From NCBI GenBank assembly GCA_965215605.1, contig OZ244070.1, forward strand, positions 2,688,001 through 2,752,000: a stretch of 64,000 nucleotides of DNA. The letters are read 5' to 3'. This document shows positions 1 through 43,124 of this stretch, in pieces (within the stretch, counting starts at the first letter, position 1; every line of letters begins with the position of its first letter). Source of the DNA: an uncultured Candidatus Binatia bacterium. Its GTDB lineage: Bacteria > Desulfobacterota > Binatia > UBA9968 > JAJDTQ01. Under the pieces are notes generated by a model. That model saw nothing but the letters and a program-made list of their open reading frames with translations, was not told where the DNA came from and did no database searches. A program made the position numbers and the translations under genes.

Positions 1-797
1 TCTATCCCAGCAACGCGCTGTTCCACGGCCAGATCCGGAACAAGGGCTGGGCGGTGGCGGTGGCCCAAGCCTACAATGACTGGCTGTACGACTGTTTCGG
101 GCGCCAGTCGGACCGGCTCAAGGGGGTGGCGCTGCTGCCGGTGCAGGACATCGACGCCGCGGTCGCGGAATTGCGCCGGTGCGTGGAGGAACTGGGCATG
201 GTGGCGGGCGTGATCCCGTCGGTGATGGCGCCGCTGGTGGGCCTGGGCGGCAGCCGGTTCGACCCGATCTACGCGGAAGCCGAGCGGCTCGACTGCGCTC
301 TGGCGGTGCACGGCGGCCCGGTGGCGGGCCTCGGCCTGGACATCTTCGAGAGCCTGGCCGAGGCGCGGCCCCTGGAGCACGCCATGCCGCAGATGGTGCA
401 GATGATGAGCATGATCAACGCCGGCGTGTACGACCGCTTCCCCAACCTGCGCGTGGCCTATCTGGAGTGCGGCACGGGCTGGGTGCCGTTCATGATGGAC
501 GCGCTGGACGAGAATTGGGAGCGTCGCGGCCACGCGCTGGCGGTGAAGCAGCGCCCCAGCGACATCATCCGCGGCGGCAACATCTTCTTCACGTGCGAGG
601 TGGACGAACGGAGCCTGCCGTACGTGCTGGAACAGCTCGGCGGGGACCAGGTGCTGTGGGCCTCGGACTATCCCCACGAGCGGGCGCGCGCCGACTTCTT
701 CCACGATCTGCCGGACTTCTTCGCCCGCGAGGACGTGAGCGCCGATGTGCGCAAGAAGATCCTGTGCGACAACCCGAAGCGCTACTATGGACTGTAA
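1..797 (+). CDS. Amidohydrolase family protein (Amidohydro_2), 5'-truncated by window edge
   Basis: Frame open from window start (YPSNALF...AQAYNDWL); LAVHGG, YLECG and WASDYPH motifs. Confidence 0.85.
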   Translation, partial: YPSNALFHGQIRNKGWAVAVAQAYNDWLYDCFGRQSDRLKGVALLPVQDIDAAVAELRRCVEELGMVAGVIPSVMAPLVGLGGSRFDPIYAEAERLDCALAVHGGPVAGLGLDIFESLAEARPLEHAMPQMVQMMSMINAGVYDRFPNLRVAYLECGTGWVPFMMDALDENWERRGHALAVKQRPSDIIRGGNIFFTCEVDERSLPYVLEQLGGDQVLWASDYPHERARADFFHDLPDFFAREDVSADVRKKILCDNPKRYYGL

Positions 798-863
798 GGC
801 ATTGGCGACGGATGCCCGCGGCCCGGGATACGGCCCCGCGGCACCCGTCGTCCATCGGACCCC

Positions 864-2252
864 ATGACGAAACCCTCGGAAACCGTTGATCTCGAAAGCG
901 CGGCCGCCATGAGCCGCGCCGACCGGGACCATCTCGTCCACGGCTTCGTGCCGCTGTCGAAGCACCAGAAGGACGGGCTGCCGGTCTTCGTCCGGGCGGA
1001 AGGGGTCTATTTCTGGGACTCCCTGGGCAAACGCTACATCGACGGCCTCTCGACCCTCTGGAACGTCCACGTGGGGCACGGCCGGAAGGAGATCGCCCGG
1101 GCGGTGGCGGACCAGATGGACCGCCTGGCCTACGCGCCCACGCTCATCGGACCCACCTCGGAGCCCACCGTGCGGTTGGCGTCGAGGCTCGCCGGGATGG
1201 CGCCGGAAGGTTTGACCCGCGTGGTGTTCACCTCCGGGGGCTCGGAGACCAACGAGAGCATGATCCGGCTGGTGCGGGCCTACTGGAAGGCCAAGGGGCA
1301 GCCCCAACGGACGCGGTTCGTCACCCTGAACCAGGGCTATCACGGCTCCTCCAGCGGCGCCGCCATGCTGACCGGCATCCCGCTGTTCAACGAGCAGATG
1401 GCGCCGGGTCTCCCGAACGTGCACCACATGGCGCGGCCCCACTGTTACCGCTGCGAGCTGGGAAAGACCTGGCCGGGTTGTCAACTGGCCTGCGCCGATG
1501 AGTTGGAGAGGCTGGTGGAGCGGGAGGGTCCGGACGCCGTCGCGGCCTTCGTGGCCGAGCCCGTGCAGGGCGTGGGCGGCGTCATCGTGCCGCCCGAAGG
1601 GTGGCTCGCGAGGATTCGGGAGATCTGCGACCGGCATGGTATTCTGATGGTCTGCGACGAGGTGATCACCGGTTTCGGCCGCACCGGCAGCCTGTTCGCG
1701 TGCGCCGGCGAGGGCGTCACGCCGGACGTGCTGGTGACCGCCAAGGGCATCACCAGCGGCTATCTGCCGCTGGGCGCCATGCTGTTCCGGGAAGAGATCT
1801 TCCAGACGCTGCTGGCCAAGGCCGACGACGCGTTCTACCACGGCTACACCTACACCGGACATCCGGTGGTATGCGCCGCGGCGCTGGCCAACCTCGACAT
1901 CATCGAGCGGGAGCGCCTGGTGGAGCGGGCGGCGGAGTCGGGCGCGTACATGCAGGAGCGGCTGGCGGCGCTGTCGGAGCTGCCCATGGTGGGGCAGGTG
2001 CGCGGCCGGGGGCTCATCGCCGCGGTGGAGCTGGTGAAGGACAAGGAGACCCGGGAGTCCTTTGCAATGGAACGGCAGGTGCCCCGGCAGGTCTACGACG
2101 AGTGCCTCGCCAACGGCCTGTTGCTGCGGGTATGCGGAACCCACGCGCTGGCGGTATGTCCGCCGCTGGTGGTCACGAAAGAGCAGATCGACGACATCGT
2201 CGGAATCTTGCGGAACGCCGTCACCACGGTCGCAAAGGCCGTGCTGTCGTAA
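864..2252 (+). CDS. Class III PLP aminotransferase (omega-amino acid/polyamine type)
   Basis: YHGSS, AEPVQGVGG, DEVITGFGRTG, AKGITSGYLPLG, HGYTYTGHP motifs. Confidence 0.9.
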   Translation: MTKPSETVDLESAAAMSRADRDHLVHGFVPLSKHQKDGLPVFVRAEGVYFWDSLGKRYIDGLSTLWNVHVGHGRKEIARAVADQMDRLAYAPTLIGPTSEPTVRLASRLAGMAPEGLTRVVFTSGGSETNESMIRLVRAYWKAKGQPQRTRFVTLNQGYHGSSSGAAMLTGIPLFNEQMAPGLPNVHHMARPHCYRCELGKTWPGCQLACADELERLVEREGPDAVAAFVAEPVQGVGGVIVPPEGWLARIREICDRHGILMVCDEVITGFGRTGSLFACAGEGVTPDVLVTAKGITSGYLPLGAMLFREEIFQTLLAKADDAFYHGYTYTGHPVVCAAALANLDIIERERLVERAAESGAYMQERLAALSELPMVGQVRGRGLIAAVELVKDKETRESFAMERQVPRQVYDECLANGLLLRVCGTHALAVCPPLVVTKEQIDDIVGILRNAVTTVAKAVLS

Positions 2253-2310
2253 CCACGACAGCCGCATCCCGCCCGGTGTGCCGTCTCAAGAACTTGGCGA
2301 AGATGCACGC

Positions 2311-2333
2311 GTAGGGGCGACCGGCGGTCGCCC
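2311..2333. repeat. GTAG-type REP-like palindrome
   Basis: GTAGGGGCGACCGGCGGTCGCCC: GTAG foot plus GGGCGACC/GGTCGCCC stem. Confidence 0.5.
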
Positions 2334-2401
2334 GGGCCCGGGCGCCATGCCAGGAAACCGGCGAGGTTTGAGCCCGAAAAGATTTTAGGAGGTATCCGCC
2401 G

Positions 2402-2566
2402 ATGGTTGAATGTCCGGTATGCGGAGCGGAATTGGAACTTGAGGATGACGCGGTGGAAGGCGAGCTGATCGCCTGCGCCGATTGCGGCACCGAGTTGGAG
2501 GTCACGAGCCTGGATCCTCCGGCGGTGGAAGAGGCGCCCTCGGAAGAGGAAGACTGGGGGGAATGA
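2402..2566 (+). CDS. lysW: Amino-group carrier protein LysW/ArgW (54 aa; absent from ORF track)
   Basis: AGGAGG RBS; MVECPVCG...CADCG zinc ribbon; acidic; ends in EDWGE; stop overlaps lysX ATG. Confidence 0.97.
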
Positions 2567-3435
2567 GCTTGAAGATCGGTCTGCTGCACTCATTGGTCCG
2601 GCCCGAGGAGAAGCTCCTCATCAAGGAGTTCCGGAAGCATCCCGACGTGGAGCTTCAGATGATCGACGACCGGAAGCTCTCGTTCAACCTGGGCAGGGAC
2701 GAGTTCGACCTGGACGTGCTGCTGGAGCGCTGCATCAACCACTCACGGGCGCTGCACGGCCTGCGGCTGTTCGAGAGCGCCGGCGTGCGCTGCGTGAACG
2801 CGTCGTCGGTGGCGACGGTGTGCGGCGACAAGATCCTCACTTCGGTGCACCTGCAGGAGCACGGCGTGCCGCAGCCCGAGGTGCGCATCGCCTTCACCGA
2901 GGAGTCCACCCTGGGGGCCATCGAGGAGATGGGTTACCCGGTGGTGCTGAAGCCCGCGGTGGGCTCCTGGGGCCGGCTGCTGGCCAAGGTCAACGATCGG
3001 GACGCCGCGGAGACCATCCTCGAGCACAAGGCGATCCTGGGGAGCTACCACCACTCCATCTTCTACGTGCAGCAGTATGTCGAGAAGACCGGGCGCGACA
3101 TCCGGAGCTTCGTCATCGGCGACGAGTGCGTGGCCGCCATCTACCGCTACAGCGACCACTGGATCACCAACACGGCCCGTGGCGGGCGCGCGGAGAACTG
3201 CCCGGTGACGGACGAGCTGCGGGATCGTTCGGTCCGCGCGGCCCGCGCGGTGGGGGGCGGCATCGTCGCCGTGGACGTCTTCGAGACCCCGGACGGACTC
3301 CTCGTCAACGAAGTGAACTACACCATGGAGTTCCGGAACAGCATCGACACCACCGGGGTGAACATTCCCGGGCTTGTGGTCGAGCACGTGCTCAAGGCCG
3401 GCCGCGAGGAACAGGAGCGCAGGGGCGCGGCCTGA
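2563..3435 (+). CDS. lysX: LysW ligase LysX (RimK-like ATP-grasp)
   Basis: [29 protein letters not shown]; ATGA overlap with lysW. Confidence 0.93.
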
Positions 3436-3489
3436 TGCGGCGGGCAGGGATCGCATGAGCGGCGCGGAGCGGAAAGCAATGGGGCGGCC

Positions 3490-4536
3490 GTGGCCGAGAG
3501 GCTGAAGGTCTCCATCGTCGGGGCGTCCGGCTACACCGGCGGCGAGCTCTTGCGCCTGCTCCTCGGGCACTCGGGGGTGGATGTCTGCGAGGTCACCTCG
3601 GAGCGCTTCGCCGGCAAGTTCGTGTTCAAGGCTCATCCCAACCTGCGCAAGCGGACGCAGCTCCGCTTCTGCAGGATGGAGGAGCTCAAGCCGTGCGACC
3701 TGCTGTTCCTGTGCCTGCCCCACGGCCAGGCCCAGGAGCGCATCGATTCGTTTCGCGAACTGGCCCCGAAGCTCATCGACCTAAGCGCGGACTTCCGGCT
3801 GAACGACGCGAACGCGTACCAACGCTGGTACGGCAAGCCGCACCAGCGCCCGGAGCTCTTGAAGGAGTTCGTCTACGGGGTTCCCGAGCTGCACCGCGAG
3901 GAGATTCGGGGGGCGAGCTTCATCACCGGCGCCGGCTGCAACGCCACCGCCACGATCCTTGGCGTCTATCCGTTCTTCAGGAAGGGGCTGGTGGACACCG
4001 AGCGCACCGTGGTGGAGGTCAAGGTGGGGTCCAGCGAGGGCGGCAACGCCGCCAGCGACGCCTCCCACCATCCCGAGCGGAGCGGCGCGGTGCGTTCGTT
4101 CATGCCCACCCTGCACCGGCACAGCGCGGAGATCTACCAGGAACTGGCGTTCGGCGAGCCGGTCCGGGTGTACTTCTCCGCCACCTCCATCGAAATGGTG
4201 CGCGGCGTCCTGGCCACCTGCCACCTTTTCCTGAAAGAACCGCTGGAAGAGAAGGACGTGTGGAAGATCTACCGCGAGGCCTACGGCAAGGAGCCCTTCA
4301 TCCGCATCGTCAAGGAGGCCGACGGCATCTACCGCTATCCGGAGCCCAAGCTGCTGAGCGGCACCAACTACTGCGACATCGGCTTCCAGAAGGAGAAGGG
4401 CTCGGACCGCTTGGTAGTGCTGAGCGCCCTCGACAACCTCATGAAAGGCGCTGCCGGCCAGGCGGTGCAGGCCTTCAACCTCATGAACGGCTTCGAGGAG
4501 ACCGAGGGCCTCGAGTTTCCGGGGCTCCACCCGTAG
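3490..4536 (+). CDS. lysY: [LysW]-aminoadipyl/glutamyl-phosphate reductase
   Basis: GASGYTGGE, DLSADFR, GCNAT, SHHPERS, DNLMKGAAGQAVQ, C-terminal GLHP. Confidence 0.92.
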   Translation: MAERLKVSIVGASGYTGGELLRLLLGHSGVDVCEVTSERFAGKFVFKAHPNLRKRTQLRFCRMEELKPCDLLFLCLPHGQAQERIDSFRELAPKLIDLSADFRLNDANAYQRWYGKPHQRPELLKEFVYGVPELHREEIRGASFITGAGCNATATILGVYPFFRKGLVDTERTVVEVKVGSSEGGNAASDASHHPERSGAVRSFMPTLHRHSAEIYQELAFGEPVRVYFSATSIEMVRGVLATCHLFLKEPLEEKDVWKIYREAYGKEPFIRIVKEADGIYRYPEPKLLSGTNYCDIGFQKEKGSDRLVVLSALDNLMKGAAGQAVQAFNLMNGFEETEGLEFPGLHP

Positions 4537-4548
4537 CCCCCGAGTGCC

Positions 4549-5187
4549 ATGTGCCGCCTCCTGTGCGTCAAGAATCGGGAACCGTTCGACATCGGCGAGC
4601 GGCTGTCGCATCTCGCCGATATCGCCCGGAACAGCCCGGAGTACCAGGGCCACGGCTGGGGCTGCGCCTACCTGGTGGACGGTGGGTGGCGGGTATATCG
4701 CAACATCAAGCCCGTCTGGGAGGACGACCTGGACCAGTTCGGCGCGACGACGCTGCTGGTGGGCCATGCCCGCAGCGCGTTCCGGGACGAGAACATCGTG
4801 GTGGAGAACAACATGCCGTTCTCCGACGACCGCTACGTGTTCGCGTTCAACGGCGAGCTGCGGGGCGTGCGCATCGCCGCGGAGGGCCGCATCGGGGCGG
4901 AGAAGGTGTTCAACTACATCAAGCGGTTCGACAAGGGGGACATGGCCGCGGCCATGCGAAAGGGGATGGACGTCATCGTCCGGAGGACGCGTTACGTCCG
5001 GGCCATGAACATGATCATCGCCGACAGGGAGAATGTCTACGTGGGGTCGTTCCACAACGAGGAGCCGGAGTACTTCAGGCTGCGCGCCCGTGAAGGCGAG
5101 GGCGGCTTCACGGTCAGCTCCGAGACCGTGGCCGAGGATCCGGCGTGGCGCACGATCCCCAACGACACGGTGGAGCACCTCCGATGA
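4549..5187 (+). CDS. Class II glutamine amidotransferase-like Ntn hydrolase (EgtC/YafJ-like)
   Basis: N-terminal MCR nucleophile, GWG, HARSA, NxxPF, FNG motifs; stop overlaps lysZ start. Confidence 0.8.
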   Translation: MCRLLCVKNREPFDIGERLSHLADIARNSPEYQGHGWGCAYLVDGGWRVYRNIKPVWEDDLDQFGATTLLVGHARSAFRDENIVVENNMPFSDDRYVFAFNGELRGVRIAAEGRIGAEKVFNYIKRFDKGDMAAAMRKGMDVIVRRTRYVRAMNMIIADRENVYVGSFHNEEPEYFRLRAREGEGGFTVSSETVAEDPAWRTIPNDTVEHLR

Positions 5188-5971
5188 TCCTGGTGAAGAT
5201 CGGCGGCGGCAGCGGCATCAACCTCCCCGGCATCGCCGGGGACCTGGCCGAGGTGTCGGCCCCGTTCATCGTGGTGCACGGCGCCAATGCGGTGCGGGAC
5301 GCCATCGCGGCGAAGCTCGGCAATCCCACGCAGGTGGTGACGTCGGTGTCGGGATACACCAGCGTGCTCTCCGACAAGGCGGCGCTGGACGCCATCCTGA
5401 TGGGCTACGCGGGGGTGCAGAACAAGCGCATCGTCGAGCTGCTGCAGCAGAACGGAGTCAACGCCGTGGGCCTTTCCGGCATCGACGGCCGCGCCATCCA
5501 GGGTCAGCGCAACAAGGGCATCCGGGTGCGGAAGAACGGCAAGACCCTGATTGTGAGGGACTTCTCGGGCAAGCCCCGGAGCGCCAACAAGGAATTGTTC
5601 CAGCTCCTGCTCGACGGCGGCTACGCGCCGGTGCTTTCCATCCCCATCATCGACGAGCGTCACACCGCCATCAACTCGGAGAACGACGACATCATCAACG
5701 TGCTCCAGGCCGCCTTCCACGCCGAGGTGGTGCTGCAGCTCATCGAGGCCCCCGGCTTTCTCGCCGACAAGGACGACGACAGCACGGTGGTGCCCGAGAT
5801 CCGCGCCGGCGAGCTGGAGCAGCGGGAGGCCCAGGTGGAGGGGCGCATGAAGCGCAAGATGCTGGCGCTTCGGAAGCTGTTCGAGGAAGGCGCGGAAAAG
5901 GTCATCATGAGCGACGGCCGTGTCGAGCATCCGGTCCGTGACGCCCTGGCGGGGAAAGGAACGGTGATTCA

Positions 5972-5975
<4 letters not shown>
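5184..5975 (+). CDS. lysZ: [LysW]-aminoadipate/glutamate kinase
   Basis: MILVKIGGG, VVHGA, GLSGIDG, GRMKRKM amino-acid kinase motifs. Confidence 0.92.
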
Positions 5976-7126
<1,151 letters not shown>

Positions 7127-7202
7127 GGTTCGCAGTACCGTGCCGCTCTGACATTCCGCGAGGTGCCCGAAACGCCATTTCTGCGGAATACCCGCTCCGG
7201 CC

Positions 7203-7224
7203 TTCCCGCGAAAGCGGGAATGAC
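7203..7224. repeat. Short palindrome (TTCCCGCGAAAGCGGGAATGAC), REP-like or terminator hairpin
   Basis: Perfect TTCCCGC/GCGGGAA stem with GAAA loop between convergent lysJ and senB. Confidence 0.55.
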
Positions 7225-7243
7225 GGAGGGGTTTGGGGCGTGA

Positions 7244-8212
7244 TCAACGCGTCACTTCACGGACCAACCCCTGCCAAGTCAGGATCTCCCGGTCCGGGTT
7301 CACCAGCGGGGCGACCTCGGCGCAGTGCCGTGCCAGGCTCTCATAGAACGCCGGGTCGTTCTCGGCCCGCAGCAGGAGCCGCTTGAGCCCGGCGGTGTCG
7401 CCCAGCTCGTAGTAGCCGGGATAGTCGTCGCCGAGGGTGCCCATCAGTCCGGAGATCCTGGACGCGGCCACGGGCACGCCGGAGGCCAGCGCTTCGCACA
7501 GCACGTTGGAGCTGCCTTCCATCTGCGAGGTGATGGACACGATGTGGCTGCGGGCCATGAACCGGCGGGTCTTCCAGTGCGGCCACTCGCCCAGCCACCG
7601 GTAGCGTGGGTTGCGCTCGGCCTCCCGCGCGGCGCGGCGCAGGAAGCTGTCGCCGAAGGCCGCGCCGATGTGCACCACCTGAATCCGGGATGTGCGTGGG
7701 AGGGAGCGCACCGCCATGGCCGTGCGGAACGGGTCCTTCTCGGGGCGCATGTGGCCCACCGCGGCGACCGTGAACTGCCTGCGGCGGTCGCCGGGGCGGC
7801 CGGGGCGGGCCGGCGCGGACTGGTAGATGACCCGGGTCTTCTCGTGCAGCGCCGGATCGAGTTCATCCAGACCCTTGCGCTGCAGCACCACCAGGCGGGC
7901 GGCCAGCCGCAGGGACTCCCGCGAGTCCTCGTCCTCATGGATGTCGCGGTAGAGGTCGGTTCCGGTCAGCACCACCACGATCGGCTTGTCGGGGTGCCGC
8001 TCATGGAACTGCCGGATGGACGGATGACTGCGGCGCGCGTGGAGGGCGATAAGCAGGTCGCAGCGCTCGCGTTCATAGCGGTCCAGGGCCGTTACCCGAT
8101 GTCCCGAGGCGCGCAGGATTCGAGCCCACCGGTTGCCTGAGATGCGGTTGCCCGTGCGGCGGGTGGGTCCGGCGGGGGTCACCAGGGCGATTCTGGCCGT
8201 TGTGGTGTCCAT
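7244..8212 (-). CDS. senB: Selenosugar synthase SenB-like GT-B glycosyltransferase
   Basis: VTPA...GNR..RWA, LIALHARRS, LTGTDLY, GHMRPEKDP, S-x-MEG; directly downstream of senA-like gene. Confidence 0.85.
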   Translation of the reverse strand: MDTTTARIALVTPAGPTRRTGNRISGNRWARILRASGHRVTALDRYERERCDLLIALHARRSHPSIRQFHERHPDKPIVVVLTGTDLYRDIHEDEDSRESLRLAARLVVLQRKGLDELDPALHEKTRVIYQSAPARPGRPGDRRRQFTVAAVGHMRPEKDPFRTAMAVRSLPRTSRIQVVHIGAAFGDSFLRRAAREAERNPRYRWLGEWPHWKTRRFMARSHIVSITSQMEGSSNVLCEALASGVPVAASRISGLMGTLGDDYPGYYELGDTAGLKRLLLRAENDPAFYESLARHCAEVAPLVNPDREILTWQGLVREVTR

Positions 8213-8239
8213 TTTTGGATATTCCGTGGGTCCAGCATG

Positions 8240-8339
8240 GCGTCCTTCGACTCCGCTACGTTTGCGCTCCGCTACGCTCAGGACGAACGGACAGTAACGC
8301 CAACCCGTTCGTCCTGAGCGTAGCGAAGTCGAAGGACGC
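8240..8339. repeat. Long imperfect inverted repeat (REP/MITE-like)
   Basis: GCGTCCTTCGACT...CGCTACGCTCAGGACGAACGG pairs with CCGTTCGTCCTGAGCGTAGCGAAGTCGAAGGACGC. Confidence 0.8.
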
Positions 8340-8354
8340 GGTTCACCTTCCGCG

Positions 8355-9659
8355 CTACTTCGTTGCGCACGTCCGGAAACCCGCCAGCACGTCCCGCCGA
8401 TCCGGCGTGTAGAAATTCCGCCAGGTGTTGCGGATCAGGTGGGAGCGGGTGGCCCAGCAGCCGCCGCGCAGCACTTTGCGGTCGCCGAACCAGGGCTCCG
8501 AGTATTCCTTGTAAGGGTCCCGGACGAAGCCGGGGTAGGGGTGGAAGGCGTCGGCCGTCCACTCCCAGACGTTGCCGATCATCTGCCGGCAGCCGGCGGC
8601 GCTGTCGCCCGCCGAGAGCGCATCCACCGGCAACCGGCCGCCGCCGGCCCAGTCGAGGTTGCCGTGGGACGGGTCGGGCGGCGCTTCGCCCCAGGGGTAG
8701 CCGCGCTTGGCGGCAGCCGGATCTGTGCCGCGGGCGGGGTCCACCGCCGCGGCCATCTCCCACTCCGCCTCCGTGGCCAGCCGGCGGCCGGCCCAGCGGC
8801 AATACGCCTCGGCCTCGTACCAGTTGACGTGGATCACCGGCAACTCCGCCTGAAGCGGCCCCCACCGGTCGAAGATCCGCTCCAGCCAACGTCCCGGCGC
8901 TTCCCGCTGCCAGTAAACGGGGTGCGTGCCGCCCTCGGCCTGCCGCCAGCTCCAGCCCTCGTCGCCCCACCAACGCGGGTCCTCGTAGCCGTTGTCGTCC
9001 ACGAACGCGGCGAACTCCTGGTTGGTCACCGGGGCGCGGGCGATGCGGAAGGGGGCCACGGTCACCGGGTGGCCCCACTTCTCGTTGTCGAAGACGAAGG
9101 GAAGATCGGGCGTGCTGCCGAGAATGAACTCGCCGCCAGGCATCTCCACGTCGCCGGGGCAGGGGCTGCCCGCCGGCGTCGCGCGTCCGGCGGCGAACGG
9201 CGGCGGGGGATAGCCCAGGGTCTGGCGCGTGTAGGTCATGGCCTCCGCGTGCATGTCCTCGTGGAAGATGACCAGCTTGTGGAAGTAGGTCTCCTCCGGG
9301 CTCAGTCGCTTGGCGGGTAGCTCTTCGGTGATCTGCCGGAGGACGCGCTCCTTGTAGGCGAGGGTTTTCGTCAGCCCCGGCAGCGCCAGCACCCAGCGGG
9401 TGTCATGGTGCACGGCCGCGGAGTCGTAGAGCTCGTCGCCGTTGGCGATGATGGGGTCGCGGCCGCGCAGATGCCGCAGCGCCCAGCGCTCATGGAACCA
9501 GGACACGTGACCGAGTTCCCAGAGCGGAGGATTCACGATGTTCAGCATGGGCACCGTGAGCTGTTCGCCGGAGAGGTCCTCCACCAGCCCCAGGGTCCGC
9601 GAGCGCACCTCTTCCAGGGTGTCCAGCATCTCGCCGGTGGTTACGGTCTTTTCTTCCAT
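8355..9659 (-). CDS. senA: Selenoneine synthase SenA-like (EgtB family: DinB + FGE-sulfatase domains)
   Basis: NPPLWELGH, HEDMHAE iron motif, FVFDNEK, GNVWEW, RNFY; start reassigned to MEEKT. Confidence 0.83.
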   Translation of the reverse strand: MEEKTVTTGEMLDTLEEVRSRTLGLVEDLSGEQLTVPMLNIVNPPLWELGHVSWFHERWALRHLRGRDPIIANGDELYDSAAVHHDTRWVLALPGLTKTLAYKERVLRQITEELPAKRLSPEETYFHKLVIFHEDMHAEAMTYTRQTLGYPPPPFAAGRATPAGSPCPGDVEMPGGEFILGSTPDLPFVFDNEKWGHPVTVAPFRIARAPVTNQEFAAFVDDNGYEDPRWWGDEGWSWRQAEGGTHPVYWQREAPGRWLERIFDRWGPLQAELPVIHVNWYEAEAYCRWAGRRLATEAEWEMAAAVDPARGTDPAAAKRGYPWGEAPPDPSHGNLDWAGGGRLPVDALSAGDSAAGCRQMIGNVWEWTADAFHPYPGFVRDPYKEYSEPWFGDRKVLRGGCWATRSHLIRNTWRNFYTPDRRDVLAGFRTCATK

Positions 9660-9663
9660 GATG

Positions 9664-10812
9664 CTACCGGAGCGCGCGCTCCAATCTCTCCCGCCACGGC
9701 TCGAATTCCCGGCACCACCCTTCGTTACGACGGGCCAGCAGGTAGCCGTGGGCGGCTTCCAGCGCGGCGCGTTCCGGCTCGGGCAATGTCGCCGCGGCGT
9801 CGGCGTCCGCGTCCCTTTCACAGAATCGCCTGAGGGCGCGCCAGTGGTCCAGGTTGACTTCACCGAACCGCTCCATCACGGCCGTCTCCCAGCTCGCCTC
9901 CGGGTCGTAATCCGCCGGGGCCCGCGCGTAGTCGAAGCAGGTGGCCATGGGAACGAAGCTCAGTTCTTCCTGCAAGAGCGGGTTGGCCAGGTGCGCGTGC
10001 ACCCGTTCCGGCAGCCGCGGGTCCCGGCCGGTGAGGGGTCCGATGTGCATTTCGTCGGCCATGGTGAGATCGTTGACCGGGTAGTTGTCCCAGAACAGCA
10101 GCCGGTGCCCCATCCTGTCGCCCATCTCCGCCATGTGGTCCAGGGTGACGCTCGCCGGCACCACCTTGGGCCCGGTCCAGAAGCAGGGCACCTGCGCCGG
10201 CAGGTAGCGCCCGACGGTCTCGGGGAAGCCGGTCTCGAACTCGCCGAAGACCCGGGCCAGCAAGGGGTCGGGGGTGTAGTACGAGGGGCAGAACCACCAC
10301 TCCGCGTCCCAGTCCGCGGGCTGTCGTTCCAGCACCGCCTCCAGCCAGAGGGACTCCGCCTTGGCCAGGCTGCCGTCGAACCTCCTCACGTCGCCGGCGT
10401 CCGTCAGGTGAGAAGGGATGTCGTCGAACAGCACCGCGAAGGTGTGCACGCCCCGGTCGTAGAGCCGCGCCGCCTTGTCGAGCAGAACCCCCACCGGTCC
10501 GGCGGCCGTGAAGCACAGGTCCTTGCCAGGGTGAAAGCCGTAGACGAAGTCGATGCCGTGGGCCCGGGCCGTGTCGATGAGCCCGCACAGCTCCCGCCAC
10601 TGCGGCTCGGGGTAGGGGAGTTGCCAGCGCTCGCGGTGGTAGGGGTCGTCCTTGGGCGCGTAGAGGTAGGTGTTCATGCCGCGCGCGGCGCCGAACGCGA
10701 ACATCGCCGCGCGGTGCGCCATGCTCCACGGGGGACCGAAGAAGCCTTCAACGATCCCCCGCCGCTCGAATGTCGCTATGGATTCAGTGTCCTGTCCGAC
10801 CGGGGATTTCAC
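9664..10812 (-). CDS. GH84 beta-N-acetylglucosaminidase (O-GlcNAcase-like), no signal peptide
   Basis: VEGFFGPPW, YLYAPKDDPYHR, catalytic LFDDI, FWTG, WDNYPVND; GTGA overlap with upstream gene. Confidence 0.87.
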   Translation of the reverse strand: MKSPVGQDTESIATFERRGIVEGFFGPPWSMAHRAAMFAFGAARGMNTYLYAPKDDPYHRERWQLPYPEPQWRELCGLIDTARAHGIDFVYGFHPGKDLCFTAAGPVGVLLDKAARLYDRGVHTFAVLFDDIPSHLTDAGDVRRFDGSLAKAESLWLEAVLERQPADWDAEWWFCPSYYTPDPLLARVFGEFETGFPETVGRYLPAQVPCFWTGPKVVPASVTLDHMAEMGDRMGHRLLFWDNYPVNDLTMADEMHIGPLTGRDPRLPERVHAHLANPLLQEELSFVPMATCFDYARAPADYDPEASWETAVMERFGEVNLDHWRALRRFCERDADADAAATLPEPERAALEAAHGYLLARRNEGWCREFEPWRERLERALR

Positions 10813-33892: not shown

Positions 33893-36232
33893 ATGCGGGA
33901 AAGCGCGCAGAACATGACATCCATGTCGAAGCCCGTTTTCTTCGATCTGGTAGTGGGTCGATACTTCTGGACGATAGCCGTCACATTCCTCGTGACCGCG
34001 GTTCTCGCCGCGGGAGTGCAGCACCTGATTACCGTCAATGTAGGCATCCGAAATCACTTCGATGAACATGACCGGCATTTGATCAAACTTGACGATTTCG
34101 AAGAGACCTACGCAGTGTCGGACAGCGTGCTCGTCATTGTCGCGCCGCCGAACGACACGGTTTTCACGCGCCAAGTACTCGTTGCGATTGAGCAACTGAC
34201 GGAGGTGTTGTGGCAAACGCCTTATTCTGTCCGTGTCGATTCGATAACCAATTACCTGCACACCGAGGGAATCGAGGACACCCTGATTGTCGAGCAGCTG
34301 GTCGACGATGCGGCTTTGCTGGACGAGGTCAAACTCGCCCGCATTCGACAGATTGCGCTCACCACACAGGACACGGCCGGCCGTTTCGTCTCTCGCGACG
34401 GTCGTGTGGCCGGGCTGATCGTGAGCCTGGCAATTCCCGATGAAAAACGGAAACAGCGCAAAATCGACGTGGTCGACGGTCTCTACGATCTTGTCAACAA
34501 ACAGCGCGCGGCCAACCCCGACATCGAATATCACATCTATGGTGAACTGTTGTTGAATCGGGCGGTTCGCGAGGCGCTGAATGAAGATATGTCCTTTTTG
34601 GCGCCCATCGCGTTTGCGATGATGGTTCTGGTGGCCATTCTATTGCTGTGGTCGGTTTGGAGCGTCTGTGGAATTTTTGCGATGATAATTGCGGTGATGG
34701 CATCGAGCTTCGGTTTAACCGGCTGGTTCGGATTGAAATTCTATGCGGAAAGCGGCGCTGCGGTATTCGTTCTGATGGCGATCGCCATCGCACACTCCGT
34801 CCACCTGATCGAAGGAATGACCGATGGAATGCGTCGTGGAATGGAACGTAAAGCCGCTGTTGTTCATTCCCTGCAAATCAATGCCCATCCGATATTTCTC
34901 ACTTCGCTCACAACCATGATCGGTTTTCTGAGCCTGAATTTCTCGGAAATGCCGCCGTTTCGAGTGATGGGAAATATCGTTGCGTTCGGCGCCATGTGCG
35001 CATTCGTTTACGCGGTCACGCTTTTGCCCGCATTGCTGGCGATGATGCCCATGCGGGCACCCGCCGAAAAGAGAAACGGAACGAAAACTTTCAAGCGTTT
35101 GGGAGATTTCGTCGTGTCCAAAAGCACCTTGTTGCTTTGGGCTTTCGTCATACTCGTTCTGGTGAGCGGATATGGCGTCTCGAGAATTAAACTGAACGAC
35201 AACAACAACGCCAAGCTGCTGAACGAAAGCTACGAGTTGCGCCGATCGGGGGATTTCATAAACGAGAACTTTTCCGGGCTGGATTCCTTCGAGTATTCAC
35301 TGGATTCCGGGCGTGCAGGGGGGATCACCGACATCGAGTACCTGCATCGGGTGGATTCGTTCGCCAATTGGCTTCGCGAACAGCCTGAAGTTTCTCACGT
35401 CACCTCGATGGCCGATATCATGAAGCGAATTAATCAGAATCTGCATAATGACGCAAAAGGCTCCTATGCCCTGCCGGCAAACTCCGACCTTGCGGCCCAA
35501 TACCTGCTTTTATACCAGTTCTCCCTACCGGTGGGCCGCGACATAAACAATCTCATCAACTTTGAGCGGTCGGCGACCCGGATGACCGTCGTGATCGGGG
35601 GAATGTCGGTCAAAGAGCAAATCGAGTTGGACAATCGCGCTTCTGCCTGGCTGGGAGAAAACGCGCCGCAAATGCGAACCGGAGCGACCGGCGTCGCCAT
35701 TGTCGGCGCTTACTCGGTGATGAGAAACATCGTAAATATGTTGCTCGGCACCTTCATCGCAATCTCGATCGTGTCGTTGCTGTTGATTTTTGCATTCAAA
35801 AGCCTTCGTTTGGGGCTTCTGAGCCTAATACCGAATTTCGTTCCAGCAATCATCGCCCTGGGGGCTTGGGGTTACGCGGTGGGAACCGTGAATATCGCCG
35901 CATCAATCGTTACCGCGATAGCGTTTGCCATCGTTGTGGACGACACCATCCATCTGCTGTCCAAATACCTGAAATCACGCGCAGAGGGCAAATCACCTTC
36001 CGAAGCTATCGCGCCGACTTTCGAGGTCGTTGGAAAACCGCTGTTAAGCACAACCTTGATTTTTGCGGTGGCATTTTTCGTCTTTGGCGCGTCGGGGCTG
36101 GTGACCAATCAGACGCTCGGGTTGCTGGTCGGAATGACGGTCATCGTTGCGCTCCTTGCGGACCTCTTTTTACTACCGCCGCTTCTGCTGGCGCTCGACA
36201 GGACGAAACACGGGCCAGCGCGCGGCGACTAG
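33893..36232 (+). CDS. MMPL/RND family lipid transporter
   Basis: Own AGGA RBS and ATG; two membrane repeats; TSLTTMIGFLSL, IVVDDTIH. Confidence 0.88.
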   Translation: MRESAQNMTSMSKPVFFDLVVGRYFWTIAVTFLVTAVLAAGVQHLITVNVGIRNHFDEHDRHLIKLDDFEETYAVSDSVLVIVAPPNDTVFTRQVLVAIEQLTEVLWQTPYSVRVDSITNYLHTEGIEDTLIVEQLVDDAALLDEVKLARIRQIALTTQDTAGRFVSRDGRVAGLIVSLAIPDEKRKQRKIDVVDGLYDLVNKQRAANPDIEYHIYGELLLNRAVREALNEDMSFLAPIAFAMMVLVAILLLWSVWSVCGIFAMIIAVMASSFGLTGWFGLKFYAESGAAVFVLMAIAIAHSVHLIEGMTDGMRRGMERKAAVVHSLQINAHPIFLTSLTTMIGFLSLNFSEMPPFRVMGNIVAFGAMCAFVYAVTLLPALLAMMPMRAPAEKRNGTKTFKRLGDFVVSKSTLLLWAFVILVLVSGYGVSRIKLNDNNNAKLLNESYELRRSGDFINENFSGLDSFEYSLDSGRAGGITDIEYLHRVDSFANWLREQPEVSHVTSMADIMKRINQNLHNDAKGSYALPANSDLAAQYLLLYQFSLPVGRDINNLINFERSATRMTVVIGGMSVKEQIELDNRASAWLGENAPQMRTGATGVAIVGAYSVMRNIVNMLLGTFIAISIVSLLLIFAFKSLRLGLLSLIPNFVPAIIALGAWGYAVGTVNIAASIVTAIAFAIVVDDTIHLLSKYLKSRAEGKSPSEAIAPTFEVVGKPLLSTTLIFAVAFFVFGASGLVTNQTLGLLVGMTVIVALLADLFLLPPLLLALDRTKHGPARGD

Positions 36233-36400
36233 CTTCCGGGACGTTTTGTGATGGCCGAAGGCATGAGGCCCTGGACGCGCCGATCACCCCGGTTCCGCCG
36301 GCGTCTCGCGAGCAAACTTCCGCCCGTCCGCGTCCACGTTCGCGGCATGCCGTCATTCTCGACAGCGTCCGTATTGCCGGTCACGAGTGCAGGAGCACCT

Positions 36401-38419
36401 TCAAGACGAAATTTCGCGCAACTGGCTTGCGATGCGCAGCCGAAGTTTCTTCGTAACCGACAATGCCGGGAATGGGTTGATTTTCAGCTTATAGTCTTTG
36501 GGCGGCGGCGCAAAGTCAAAATGATGCGCTATAACCAACACGGTAACCGTCGCCTGCAAATGCATCCATGCCCATCCCGCGCACGAGTGGGTATCCAAGC
36601 CGTTCGGAGCGTATCCAGGACCTTGATGCTCATTGCGCGGCGGGAGGTAACGGTCGATATCGAAGTCGTAGGGGTCTGCGAAGCAATCACTCATGTAGTG
36701 GGCCGCGGTTTGCACAATGTACAACCGTTCCCTGAGCGGCAGTGAATAATTTTCCACCACGCAAGAATTTGCGACATCGCGAAGATGTGTGCTGATAATC
36801 GGATACATTCGCAAGCATTCCATGAGAAAGCGCCTGGTAACGTCATACTTGTCCGGCGTAAACGCTTCTTTATCCGGATCGCCGCCATCGAACAGCGCGT
36901 TTGCCTCTTCACGAATTCTCGCCGCAATATCCGGGTGCCGGGCCAACTCATAAAGCGCGAAACCCAACATGTCCCCTAGATAAATACTTTGAAACACGGG
37001 CGTTACCGCCATCATGAACATCAGGTTTTGCTCCGGGATAAACTGCGGATCGCTGCTGTGCAAAGAAATCAGCTCGTCCGCCAGCTCCCGGGCGGCGCCT
37101 GCACGGTGAATGGGAATGTGGTTCTGTTCGATGCGCCGAAGGAGTTTCTCGTAAAGCTGGAAGCGATACTTCATGCCGGGAGTGCGCGTCAGGAATTTCG
37201 GCAGAAAATCCGCAACGTAGCAAAGGATTGCTTTTTCATTCCATTTGACCAGGTCTTCAAATACATCTTGCGAATTCGTACTAATAAGAACCTGAGACAT
37301 TTGAAAATTGGTCATCGACCGGGTATCGCGCTGTACTTCCAGTGTCGAGCCTGCCTGCCACTTTTGAGTTATCATGAATTGGCGGCTCAGTCGGAACATG
37401 TCATCCAGCCGCTCATGGAAACTGGCCTTCGAGTAAATTTTCCCCATCAGCTTGCGCAATCGAAAATGATCAGCTCCGTCCGTCGACGGCAGTAAATTGT
37501 TTGCGCCGCAAACCGTCTCCATCTTGCGAAAAAAATTGCCGGAAGTCAAAAACCTTCGGGAATTTCGACGCATCCAATGATTGATGTCAGGTCCTGCCAA
37601 AAATGTTCGCGGCCTTTGAAACGGCGGACAGATTTGAAAGACGGGACCATATCGGTCGGCCAGATTCCCGAACAGCGCCGGGAGGTTGCCGTCCCACAAA
37701 TGCCGATTTGCAAACAAGCTCCTTAGGGGAATCTTCGGAATTGGTTTTGTGAGGGGTGAGTGTTGCAATACAGGCGTAATGGCGAGCTGCTTGACAGCAG
37801 TGGAGATGACCCGGTTGATCAGTTCCGTTTTACAAACCTGGTCAATTCGCTGTTTCTCGTTCTCACCCAGCTCGAAAATGAATTTGATGATATCGCACGC
37901 GTTCAAAAGACCGATTATCAGGGAATCCCTCGGGTCTGGAATGATATCCGTGAAAATCACCTTCGCGATTCGCGATTTGATGTACTTTCCAACGGTTTCG
38001 CTTTGGGGATATCGTTCCAATTCCGCATGCCAGGCGCAGTGGTTCGTTGTATAAAACTCACCATCATGGCGCGTCAGAATTTCGGAGTTGATCAACTGCT
38101 TCAGTGTAGCATCGATGATGTCTTCCGAATGAACTGCAAGCCGCTCAATCCAGTATCGCGGTTCTTCGAGATTGGGATGGGATGCAAACTCGTCCAGGCA
38201 TAGATCCAGTGCCGGGTCGCCTGTTTTGGTCGAGTCCAGGAGAAAGAGCGATTCTTCATCTGTATCAATGCGTGATTTCAGGGAGAGATCGGCCAGAACT
38301 GCGCCGATGGTGGCGCAGTTCAGCGTCCAGCCCTCCACTTGGTGGAAATAACCGTTCTGCTCGTTGAGAATCGTCAGGATGAATTCTTGCGGGATATTCA
38401 ACGATTGCTTCGTTATCAT
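36401..38419 (-). CDS. GPP34 (GOLPH3-like) domain-cytochrome P450 fusion
   Basis: N-term GAVLADLSLKSRIDTD...TGDPALD...WI; C-term ECLRMYP, FDIDRY, HSCAG heme Cys; start 38419 or 38431. Confidence 0.8.
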   Translation of the reverse strand: MITKQSLNIPQEFILTILNEQNGYFHQVEGWTLNCATIGAVLADLSLKSRIDTDEESLFLLDSTKTGDPALDLCLDEFASHPNLEEPRYWIERLAVHSEDIIDATLKQLINSEILTRHDGEFYTTNHCAWHAELERYPQSETVGKYIKSRIAKVIFTDIIPDPRDSLIIGLLNACDIIKFIFELGENEKQRIDQVCKTELINRVISTAVKQLAITPVLQHSPLTKPIPKIPLRSLFANRHLWDGNLPALFGNLADRYGPVFQICPPFQRPRTFLAGPDINHWMRRNSRRFLTSGNFFRKMETVCGANNLLPSTDGADHFRLRKLMGKIYSKASFHERLDDMFRLSRQFMITQKWQAGSTLEVQRDTRSMTNFQMSQVLISTNSQDVFEDLVKWNEKAILCYVADFLPKFLTRTPGMKYRFQLYEKLLRRIEQNHIPIHRAGAARELADELISLHSSDPQFIPEQNLMFMMAVTPVFQSIYLGDMLGFALYELARHPDIAARIREEANALFDGGDPDKEAFTPDKYDVTRRFLMECLRMYPIISTHLRDVANSCVVENYSLPLRERLYIVQTAAHYMSDCFADPYDFDIDRYLPPRNEHQGPGYAPNGLDTHSCAGWAWMHLQATVTVLVIAHHFDFAPPPKDYKLKINPFPALSVTKKLRLRIASQLREISS

Positions 38420-38499
38420 GTTACACGCCATTCCTCGTGATTTGATTCTTTCTCGTGATGCCGATGCCTGCGGCTTCCGGTCCCCTTTTTTCCATCCCT

Positions 38500-41400
38500 C
38501 TACGAGAACTTCTTTGCCGTTCCGGTTCTGCCGTCCGGCGTCATGTCCACAGCCGCCACTCTTCCAGCCATGACGCGTTGACTTCTCGCCGGTAATATCA
38601 TGTTCATTCGTTGGTTCCGGCGACGCTGCTCGTAGAGGGCAAGCGCGTGCAGGGGGAAATACTGGCGGTAGAGCACGTAATCCAGGAGCGCCGTTCGAAA
38701 AAAAACGCCGGCCATGTCCTGCTTGGGCCAAGTCCCGTCTGCTTCCTGCGTATCAAGCAGGAAGCCGGCACCCCGGGAAATCGCGGCCCAGTCTGTTGTG
38801 CCCGCCTCGAGGAGCGCTATCAGCGCCCACGCGGTCTGTATGACCTGGCTTTCCTGATGCGGGACGTAGCGACCGCTCAGGCAGCCGCTGTGGTGTTCGC
38901 CCCATCCCCCGTCTTGCTGCTGGCGCTCCAGCAGCCAGCGGCAAGACGCGCGCAGCGCCGGATCGCTTGGACCGGCCCGGTCCGAAACAAGGCCCCTGAT
39001 GCCGAAAAGGGTGCCGTAGATGTACTGTACCCCCCATACGCCGCGCCAACTGCCGTCAGCCATCTGGTGCCGTCGCAACCACAAGACGCCCCGGGCGATG
39101 GAGTCGGCAACCACCGACCTGTCGCCAATTTCGGGAAATCGATCCCGGCAGACAGCCAGCGCCGCGATACAAGACGCGGTACACTCGACAAAAGAACGCT
39201 CGGTCATCGATTCGCCGAACATCTCTGCAGGATTCAAGCGCTCCAGATCAATTGCCGAGCGCCTGGCCTCATAACTGCCGAAGCCGCCGTCGGGGTTCTG
39301 GCTTCGCAACATAAAGCCAATCGCTTCGCTGAGGACGGACGGGTCCGTGTCGTCTCCGTGGGCGGCGACGAGTCCGAGCACCGCCTCCGCCGTGCAGTCA
39401 CTCACCGGCCAGCCATGCCACCCGCCAGCGAAGCACCAGCCGCCTTTGGGGTCAGCGCGGTAGGCTTCACGAAACCGCTCAAAGCTGGTCTTGATCTGTT
39501 CGCCGAGCAGAAAATCGGCGCCGCGCTGGAGCGCATCCCGAACACGGTCCGTCTCAGGCATGGTAGCCAGAGCCTGCAGCACGAACCCGGTATCCCACGA
39601 AGCGCTTCTTGCTCCGGTGACCCGCAAGCCGTCGTCTTCGTCTTCCCATATCCAGGAACCCATTTTCGATAGCGCCCGTCGGCAATCGGTATCGTCCGGA
39701 TCGTGCAGCCACAGCGCCAGAATGTTGAGAATGCCGCTGACCGGAGAGATGCTCGTATGGCCGGTGGTCTGCAGTTCCCATCTGATCTGCCCGAGAATTG
39801 TATCCATGCACCGTGTGCGCAGGTGTTTGCTGTGGAACCGCTCGACCAGCCGTGCAAATCCATATCCGAGCCTGAGCCAGACGGACGGCCTTGCAAAAAG
39901 ATCGGCGTCCCGAAGCCGGTTCCTGGCGGCGAGAAAATCGGCCCTGGCAAAACCTTGCGGATAAAGCTCTTCCCGCAACGCGGCGATAACTGGTGTGACG
40001 GGCACCTGGAACCGGCGGGCATAAATCGACGCCATCGCCATATAGAGGAGCCGTGTATGGCAGTACCAGTTGGAGGGATGCAGCGGTATCTTCCGCGGCA
40101 GGCTCCACAATTCCGGCAGAACAGCGTTCACGCCGTTCCAATCATAAAGATTAAGGAGCGCCAGCCATAATTTTCCCCAGCTCGGAATGCCGAGAATCCC
40201 CTCGGCCTGAATGAACCGCCGGGCCGGCGCGATCAGGGGGTCATCCGGCAATACACCGAGCAGCCGCGCCGCGACATAAACGAGGGCGGTGACGAACAGA
40301 TGGGGCGACGAATGCTCGTGCAGGCCCCATGAACCGTCCTGGAGACGAGTCCTCTCAAACGAGCGCAGCACCCGGCGCCGCTTTCCCGGATCGAGCGGCT
40401 GGCCGATGATGTGGTGGAGCAGTACGTATTGCGCCGTGAGCATGGGACACCAGACCATCTCGCCTTCCCAGTCGCCGTCCTCTCTCTGCAGTTGCACGAG
40501 GCATTGGGCGGCGCTGTCCAGCGCCGGGCCGGCATCGGGCGAATCGACCTCTCCGGCGCGGGCAGGCCGCTCCGATTCGGTTTTCGAAGGGATGGAATAG
40601 GGGAATGCCCGTCGTAGGTGCTCTCGCGCATTCGCGCTTTCCTCCCTTCCTTCCCTGGTCGCCTCCCTCAACTGGCGGATGCCGAGCAGCAACCACCAAA
40701 GGCGAGCAGCCAACGCGCGAAAGTTCACCAACATCCGACGCCATGAAAGCCTGCGGATGGAGAAGGTTATCTCCCGGCTCATTGCCCGCGCGACAGTTTC
40801 GCAAAAGGAGAAAACCGTCATTGACATGGACAAGTCTTCGCAGGCAAGTATCCGCATGGTCCGGTCCCGATACCCCGAATTCGCTCGCCAGCCCTGGTAA
40901 ACGGCCTTTCTGAGCATAGCCGATTCGGTGCGGTAATCGCCCAACACCTCATAAAGCCCCATGGCAAGGAACTCGGGAACACGGGTCGCCTGGAACCGCT
41001 CTGCGGTGAATTGCTGGAAGTCCTCGCTTTTGGAGAGCGCCAGCGCATCGCCGAAGCCGAGAGTCATGCCGACTGCCGTCATGGGATGATAGTGTCCGGC
41101 GGCATCGCCGATAAGCACCCGGCGCGGGCTCCCGTACGTGACACGCGGTCTCAATTGGTTGGGGGCGGCATGGAATCGCCTGACGTGCAGCGCTTCGACG
41201 AAGGCTGGCCCGAGATATCCCGGAAGCAGCTTGCCATAGGATTCAGACAAGAAACTTATCCAGTCCTTGGAATTCCAGCAGTCCAATGGGACATCCACGT
41301 TGACCCGGACGGAGCCGTTCGCAAGTCCGTAAATGAAAATTGGACCCGGCCCGCCCAGAACCACATGTCCGTATCCTTCAAACGGCAGGTCGGCGTCGTG

Positions 41401-43037: not shown

Positions 43038-43124
43038 TGGTGCGAGGAGGGGGACTTGAACCCCCACGCCATTGCTGGCACTAGCCCCTCAAGCTAGCGC
43101 GTCTGCCTATTCCGCCATCCTCGC
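43038..43124 (-). tRNA. tRNA-Leu(GAG)
   Basis: GCGAGGA/TCCTCGC acceptor stem, CTAGC-TTGAGGG-GCTAG anticodon arm, long variable arm, GGTTCAAGTCC, CCA end; downstream of secG. Confidence 0.97.

Follow-up and report, generated by a model that had tools for sequence, protein, structure and literature searches.

The LysW amino-group carrier protein (AmCP) route is the textbook case of a pathway linking lysine and arginine biosynthesis. LysX loads the substrate onto the gamma-carboxyl of the Glu at the C-terminus of LysW, LysY reduces the LysW-bound acyl phosphate, LysJ aminates the LysW-bound semialdehyde and, to our knowledge, no enzyme other than the M20 enzyme LysK is known for the last step. 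Here we describe a locus in a stretch of DNA of 64,000 nucleotides (nt) from an uncultured Candidatus Binatia bacterium (contig OZ244070.1, positions 2,688,001 to 2,752,000; "the window" denotes this whole stretch), in which the genes lysW-lysX-lysY-hydrolase-lysZ-lysJ form a tightly packed operon (2402–7126, + strand) and no M20 gene is present in the lys cluster. The fourth gene encodes an N-terminal-nucleophile (Ntn) hydrolase with an N-terminal Cys, below simply the hydrolase, which comparative and structure-based evidence suggests is probably a LysW gamma-glutamyl amidohydrolase that releases lysine or ornithine in place of LysK and also uncaps LysW proteins ending in Gln. The initial annotation of this DNA had described the operon as containing all LysW-dependent steps except that of LysK, with the hydrolase 12 nt past lysY and overlapping the start of lysZ. 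These gene calls hold, and the coordinates agree: the lysY–hydrolase spacer of 12 nt covers 4537–4548, and the TGA of the hydrolase (5185–5187) overlaps the ATG of lysZ (5184–5186) as ATGA.

Among the described systems, LysK of Thermus, Deinococcus and archaea (TIGR01902, NF003367) is closest in the proposed reaction and in its place in the pathway, and the operons are otherwise equal in genes. LysK is, however, a metal-dependent M20 enzyme, whereas the hydrolase is a Cys Ntn hydrolase of unrelated fold and mechanism, so that the two are at most functional analogues. LysK also deacetylates N-acetyl-lysine and N-acetyl-ornithine, according to the accessible part of a recent article (PMC12998189), and this activity is not expected of the hydrolase. 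The best structural match is EgtC (4zfj, 4zfk, 4zfl; TIGR03442), likewise a stand-alone single domain of ~210–235 amino acids (aa) with Cys at its N-terminus and an Asn-Gly oxyanion motif, which hydrolyses a gamma-glutamyl amide without ammonia transfer. The hydrolase differs from EgtC in sequence (18–20% identity), in its neighbours, which are lys genes and not egt genes (egtA, B, D, E), and in its proposed substrate, a protein C-terminus. The best sequence matches among solved structures are 3mdn (Silicibacter pomeroyi) and 1te5 (Pseudomonas aeruginosa), uncharacterised single-domain proteins for which we know of no link to LysW; 3mdn differs by extra loops and by a G-S-T-D-S-E motif in which the Asp is kept. 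Finally, the glutaminase domains of PurF and GlmS share the Cys1, H-x-R Arg and Asn-Gly positions in alignment (template modelling (TM) score 0.65–0.76), but the hydrolase has no synthase domain or ammonia acceptor, a shorter loop and Gly in place of Asp.

In its accessible part, the 2025 article on the evolution of the pathway names only LysK for the last step (PMC12998189), and the part of the Caldithrix abyssi genome paper available to us reports LysWXZYJ and Hcs at one locus, calls the rest "scattered" and leaves LysK unlisted (PMC5317091). A literature search, which did not cover subscription journals and supplements, found no work linking LysW to a glutamine amidotransferase, EgtC, Ntn or class-II enzyme, in line with the suggestion of the initial annotation that a LysW hydrolase of different fold was undescribed. 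The LysW pathway itself is already known; what would be new is the enzyme for release, with its particular fold and mechanism, and the carrier capped by Gln.

Relatives of the hydrolase were found in at least 488 species when one genome per species was scanned, and the best 80 loci were analysed. All 80 have a lys-pathway gene on the same strand within 600 nt. The order lysY-Ntn-lysZ, Ntn standing for the hydrolase gene, is found in 63 of them and lysX-Ntn-lysZ in three; nine loci have only lysZ or lysJ downstream and no lys gene upstream, and for four of these less than 1.1 kb of sequence precedes the gene. In the remaining five, lysY upstream is the sole lys neighbour, and in two of these the sequence stops less than 0.9 kb downstream. 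The loci are labelled as Binatia, Ignavibacteriota, Bacteroidota, Calditrichota, Gammaproteobacteria and Planctomycetota, and further as Gemmatimonadota, Rhodothermota, "Deltaproteobacteria" and archaeon-labelled metagenome-assembled genomes (MAGs). In each of 13 further genomes, lysW and the hydrolase gene share contig and strand and lie 2.3–7.3 kb apart. LysW was matched in 12 of 301 genomes sampled at random from the phylum of Rosettibacter and in five of 121 from the phylum of genome G024, and all 17 carry the hydrolase on the lysW contig and strand; five of the 17 were previously known (G024 and four from the best 80 loci), 12 are new, and the two samples offer no within-phylum contrast. 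The sample from the window's own phylum gave a LysW match in nine of 121 genomes, three of them over the cut-off; here G508 carries the hydrolase, the contig of G533 (2950 nt) stops inside the operon, and G522 is taken up below. In the cultured Rosettibacter primus the operon is limited to W-hcs-X-Y-Ntn-Z-J; its hcs, a homocitrate-synthase-like gene, separates lysW from lysX, and past lysJ come nuo genes. A plasmid search with the hydrolase gave no matches.

The hydrolase and LysK were never found together, neither in the 93 hydrolase-bearing genomes nor in 19 LysK loci. No protein passes the TIGR01902 cut-off for LysK in any of the 80 genomes or of the 13 further ones, the Deinococcus LysK gives no tblastn match in the 80 loci, and eight of the 80 genomes, including that of the isolate R. 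primus, lack any M20 match at E ≤ 1e-5. In the window genome, which is 97% complete, TIGR01902 returns seven weak matches, the best with 46.6 bits against a cut-off of 163.1; none of its seven M20 genes lies near the lys operon, and tblastn with the annotated Deinococcus LysK yields nothing above 60 bits. As a positive control, six of six LysK proteins from LysK-type operons score 225–329 bits on TIGR01902, and one control LysK is recognised at only 35% identity to the Deinococcus enzyme; among 14 named control genomes the model has matches in 12, over the cut-off in four.

LysK-type operons provide the contrast. The annotated plasmid operon of Deinococcus sp. NW-56 reads hcs-hacA-hacB-lysW-lysX-argC(lysY)-lysZ-lysJ-[LysW]-lysine hydrolase (LysK), and the 90 nt between its lysY and lysZ contain no gene. 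The contrast set comprised the 80 metagenome loci nearest to the Deinococcus NW-56 LysW, with LysW first in the query alignment. Of these, 37 have both lysY and lysZ; the hydrolase is present in one (L180) and absent from the other 36, even when every frame of 60 aa or longer was searched with a profile at E ≤ 1. LysK is present in 18 of these 36 and in one more locus (L148), and its place in LysK-type loci is past lysJ or between lysX and lysY. The larger lysY–lysZ gaps of five LysK-type loci (L109, L134, L137, L161 and L166) hold no relative of the hydrolase according to the profile search. The mutual exclusion with lysK in lysW clusters that the initial annotation had put forward as a check is borne out in these sets, and neither a true lysK elsewhere in the window genome nor, among the 80 loci and the 13 further genomes, homologues unlinked to LysW-pathway genes, both of which it had considered, were seen.

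The open reading frame (ORF) is genuine rather than a product of chance: it has 3034 homologues of ~212 aa each in a protein collection clustered at 90%, a family that is compact and well conserved, and a predicted structure with a mean predicted local distance difference test (pLDDT) score of 95.6; among 1.84 billion representatives, 356 clusters match it at E ≤ 0.001. Existing family models describe the protein poorly: it scores 20.4 bits with PF13230 (GATase_4; gathering cut-off 23), for which a minority of its homologues carry a precomputed match, and 42.4 bits with the EgtC model TIGR03442, far under the cut-off of 218.65. The family-model searches gave no M20 match. In 60 sequences with identities down to 26%, residues C2, R3, W57, R75, P90, N101, G113, G116 and Y175 are invariant, and M1 and G102 are each kept in at least 90%. 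The AlphaFold model (predicted TM score 0.92) has EgtC (4zfl, 4zfj, 4zfk) as its top Foldseek matches, with E ~1e-13 and TM scores of 0.77–0.83, followed by 1te5 and 3mdn and, further down, by glutaminase domains from PurF, GlmS and GFAT (E-values overall 1e-13 to 1e-7). By sequence, the closest solved chains are 3mdn (1.8e-9), EgtC (1e-6) and 1te5 (0.0038).

For a comparison of active sites, the glutaminase domains of the window genome's own PurF and GlmS were added to the family alignment with MAFFT. Their Cys1, H-x-R Arg and H-N-G align with C2, R75 and F-N-G (N101-G102) of the hydrolase, and R75 and N101-G102 also align with the H-x-R and HNG of 3mdn and EgtC. In PurF and GlmS, the Arg binds the alpha-carboxylate of the substrate, Asn-Gly forms the oxyanion hole, and the Asp of the S/T-D-T-E motif binds the free alpha-amino group of glutamine. 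It is this Asp that aligns with the invariant Gly116 of the hydrolase, and the hidden Markov model alignment to 3mdn concurs, placing G-S-T-D-S-E against G-R-I-G-A-E; the comparison at this position covers PurF, GlmS and 3mdn. The hydrolase thus has Cys2, the four-layer Ntn fold, the Arg and the Asn-Gly of the class-II (Ntn) superfamily and lacks the amino-binding Asp. The exchange of this Asp for an invariant Gly would be expected for, and fits, a glutamyl residue whose alpha-amine is tied up in a peptide bond, as in the C-terminal residue of a protein.

We also predicted the complex of hydrolase residues 2–212 with LysW. Its median score came to 0.60, against 0.00 for the best of three controls, with the runs agreeing in at least 95% of contacts and a partner pLDDT of at least 79. 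Of 80 solved complexes, 58 attain the mark applied, as do two of 110 mismatched pairs; scores of 0.60 or less occur in only seven of these solved complexes but in both of the mismatched pairs at the mark, and the prediction, being weak support, is left out of the evidence.

Linkage, exclusion and the EgtC-like fold support the reading already given in the initial annotation, that of a LysW-gamma-Lys/Orn hydrolase of different fold. For the substrate and for both reactions, release and uncapping of Gln, we infer the following course. The initiator Met1 would be removed and Cys exposed as the N-terminal residue, the thiol of which would attack the isopeptide carbonyl joining Glu54 of LysW to the alpha-amino group of the product, which would be lysine or possibly ornithine where a second LysX paralogue exists. 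Asn101-Gly102 would stabilise the oxyanion, while Arg75 would hold the free alpha-carboxylate of the terminal Glu. The amine product would then leave and water resolve the gamma-glutamyl thioester, regenerating LysW-Glu for LysX, so that the M20 metallopeptidase LysK would give way to an enzyme non-homologous in fold and mechanism. If the group that leaves were NH3, the same chemistry would convert Gln-ended LysW to active LysW-Glu. A bolder variant, in which the thioester hands LysW straight on to another substrate amine and no ATP is spent, is unlikely in view of the constant retention of lysX.

The second reaction is suggested by the carriers themselves. LysW beside the hydrolase ends in ...EEDWGQ followed by a stop codon in nine of 61 readable cases (15% in the best-80 sample); a Fisher test of these nine of 61 against none of 36 gives P = 0.024 but ignores relatedness. 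On the LysY tree, rows with a readable LysW comprise nine Gln and 52 Glu termini inside the hydrolase clade and no Gln and 42 Glu termini outside it. At least six Glu/Gln changes are counted on this tree, all within the hydrolase clade, although total branch length is 10.2 inside and 13.9 outside; a rough calculation under equal rates gives P ~0.006 for such a placement. LysX cannot load a carrier that ends in Gln before deamidation, and a gamma-glutamyl amide hydrolase acting at the LysW terminus would uncap the Gln as a side reaction. Gln-ended LysW is found only beside the hydrolase, and the Gln cap lends independent support to the LysW terminus as the proposed site of action. Whether the enzyme is a carrier amidase with two jobs, which releases lysine or ornithine in place of LysK and activates a genetically encoded Gln-ended pro-carrier, we regard as evenly balanced. 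As a separate observation, a 2.5-kb metagenome contig (L114) carries at 119–271 a LysW-like ORF ending in NEDWGQ, with no recognisable lys gene in the 2.2 kb downstream.

The same carriers could be taken to mean that the hydrolase is a maturase only, which deamidates Gln-ended pro-LysW to LysW-Glu and leaves product release to another enzyme elsewhere. The fold natively carries out deamidation of the glutamine type, and Gln-ended LysW is seen beside this gene only. But LysW already ends in Glu in 51 of the 61 operons, as it does in the window, yet the hydrolase is kept in all, and the absence of LysK from all 80 genomes, together with that of any M20 match from eight of them, leaves this an improbable account. 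LysK is also what separates release from proofreading or salvage, in which the hydrolase would strip wrong or stalled adducts such as LysW-gamma-Glu and would not be the main release enzyme. Operon membership and the predicted bond specificity would be the same as for a LysW amidohydrolase, and the two LysX paralogues of L041, L043 and L071 make mixed loading plausible; a proofreading enzyme, however, should co-occur with LysK, which was seen in none of the 93 genomes and 19 LysK loci, and we hold this role to be quite unlikely.

Weak similarity to GATase_4 and EgtC could instead indicate an ordinary small-molecule class-II amidotransferase or EgtC-like enzyme whose place among the lys genes has a regulatory or historical cause, either as an ammonia-supplying glutaminase or as a hydrolase of gamma-glutamyl compounds, for example for senA and senB, which adjoin the operon in the window. 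The score with the EgtC model, 42 bits against 218.65, speaks against this, as does the restriction of sen adjacency to the 17 closest, Binatia-type relatives among the 80 loci (L009–L025; senB in 17, senA in 15). In addition, the Asp for a free alpha-amino group is replaced by the invariant Gly116, a synthase partner domain or gene is absent, and the amino group is already supplied by LysJ, all of which makes a small-molecule role very unlikely.

Several observations weigh against release by the hydrolase in place of LysK, or narrow what the counts can say for it. Five of the loci with only lysZ or lysJ downstream have room upstream yet no lys gene directly there, and three gammaproteobacterial loci lack lysZ or lysJ past the hydrolase despite room. 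Genome G522, from the window's own phylum and 90% complete, has lysWXYZJ without the hydrolase and without a detectable LysK, its contig ending after lysJ. Generic ArgE/DapE deacylases may be the release enzymes in some hydrolase-bearing genomes: the best M20 proteins of two of them score 100–116 bits and fit generic ArgE/DapE models better. Known LysW-binding enzymes are markedly basic, whereas this family, with a median isoelectric point of 7.9 and 6.0 for the window protein, is not, although charge complementarity is uninformative here. In the LysY tree, built by FastTree only, all but one of 70 hydrolase-type rows (69) fall into a single clade with a Shimodaira–Hasegawa-like support of 90, the exception (L065) being a paralogue in a locus whose own lysY lies off the contig. 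Because hydrolase-type operons form essentially one clade, the 80 loci are not independent events, and linkage and loss of LysK seem to go back to a single origin, after which the operon was long retained and also transferred; within this clade, which mixes phyla, hydrolase identity falls to 50%.

The need for the operon differs between carriers. The cultured carriers Rosettibacter and Melioribacter have no lysA at E ≤ 1e-10. The window genome, as a further point on the opposing side, also holds lysA (525 bits), a canonical argB and two argJ genes, because of which the operon is not provably essential there, and a clear homocitrate synthase was not found in it, the best match, just outside the window, scoring 276 bits against 413.55. 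The operon's product in the window organism is thus less certain than in the two lysA-less isolates. Both argJ genes are full length (G000:C2:39171-40343 and G000:C1:2600710-2601876; 422 and 420 bits) and one lies on a second contig; one copy may be foreign, genome contamination being given as 5.7%.

The five lys genes of the window score at, above or near the curated NCBIfam cut-offs (Table 1); with the LysJ_Th_th model, lysJ reaches 473 bits, under the cut-off of 700. The start of lysZ is placed at the ATG at 5184, where the NF010659 match begins at residue 14 of the frame opening with GTG at 5145. The gene after lysJ is senB, which is convergent, and the operon accordingly ends at lysJ. Rfam gave no riboswitch or leader match in window positions 1–9000 at E ≤ 0.1, and none at gathering score in eight related loci.

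Table 1. Genes of the lys operon and other features of the window, with positions counted from its first letter; bit scores are given against the model cut-offs
Feature	Position	Strand	Description
Amidohydro_2 gene and class-III aminotransferase gene	3-2252	+	Amidohydro_2 gene cut by window start; aminotransferase of 462 aa directly upstream of lysW
lysW	2402-2566	+	54 aa, zinc-ribbon amino-group carrier; C-terminus EEEDWGE; PF21344 2.9e-19; TIGR01206 71.2 bits (cut-off 53.2); AGGAGG upstream
lysX	2569-3435	+	ATP-grasp ligase; TIGR02144 LysX_arch 347.1 bits (275.6); LysX pre-ATP-grasp and RimK domains; TTG start 2 nt past lysW stop
lysY (argC family)	3490-4536	+	TIGR01850 393.2 bits (233.6); TAG stop 4534-4536
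Hydrolase ORF	4549-5187	+	212 aa, begins MCRLL; N-terminal Cys (Cys2); class-II-amidotransferase/EgtC-like Ntn fold
lysZ	5184-5975	+	[LysW]-aminoadipate kinase; NF010659 246.5 bits (223)
lysJ	5972-7126	+	Class-III aminotransferase; TIGR00707 439.5 bits (410); closes operon
senB and senA	7244-9863	-	senB, selenosugar synthase, TIGR04348 387 bits (300); senA, selenoneine synthase, EgtB-related, NF041186 513 bits (420); both convergent to lys operon
Region of falling G+C	34000-40000		G+C falls from ~0.66 to 0.53 between 34 and 38 kb
tRNA gene	43041-43124	-	

The Amidohydro_2/aminotransferase pair upstream of lysW recurs in most of the 17 closest relatives and in no other phylum, and may have a role in substrate supply. 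We rejected the Amidohydro_2 gene as an alternative release enzyme, its conservation being confined to close Binatia relatives. Farther along the window, the region of low G+C (34–40 kb) may be an island beside the tRNA gene.

Operon architecture varies among the relatives. The gammaproteobacterial loci L070, L077 and L088 read lysW-lysX-lysY-Ntn, with no lysZ or lysJ in the next 2.4–8 kb, and in two of the three LysW ends in Gln. In L017, on a Binatia MAG chromosome, lysY-Ntn-lysZ-lysJ occurs twice in tandem (1834–5752 and 6772–10168), the second lysZ match being shortened, which is either a duplication or an assembly artefact. Two LysX paralogues, known from archaea in which a single carrier serves lysine as well as arginine, are present in L041, L043 and L071, and in the LysK-type set in L122, L143, L146–L149 and L152; in L041 and L043 the second LysX directly precedes the hydrolase. 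Locus L098 of G522 (G522:C346) is a Deinococcus-like operon with a LysW 70% identical to that of Deinococcus. Bacterial-looking operons of the hydrolase type also occur in archaea-labelled MAGs (Woesearchaeota, Methanosarcinales) with genomes of 1.2–1.8 Mb, namely loci L032, L046 and L053 and genomes G024, G428, G437, G470 and G477 (five of 121 sampled in the phylum), which points to operon transfer or mislabelled bins.

If the hydrolase does release the product in place of LysK, the LysW pathway would hold a clear case of non-orthologous displacement, spread over many phyla and at least 488 species genomes. Thousands of proteins now labelled "glutamine amidotransferase" or "hypothetical" would have their labels corrected, and an apparent gap in lysine biosynthesis would disappear when the metabolism of Ignavibacteria, Calditrichota, Binatia and others is reconstructed. 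Among Cys-Ntn enzymes, the hydrolase would be the first to act on an amino-group carrier protein, and Gln-ended LysW the first amide-capped carrier, a new and directly testable feature of carrier-protein biochemistry. Should the enzyme indeed perform both jobs, such a carrier would be usable only where its release enzyme is made.

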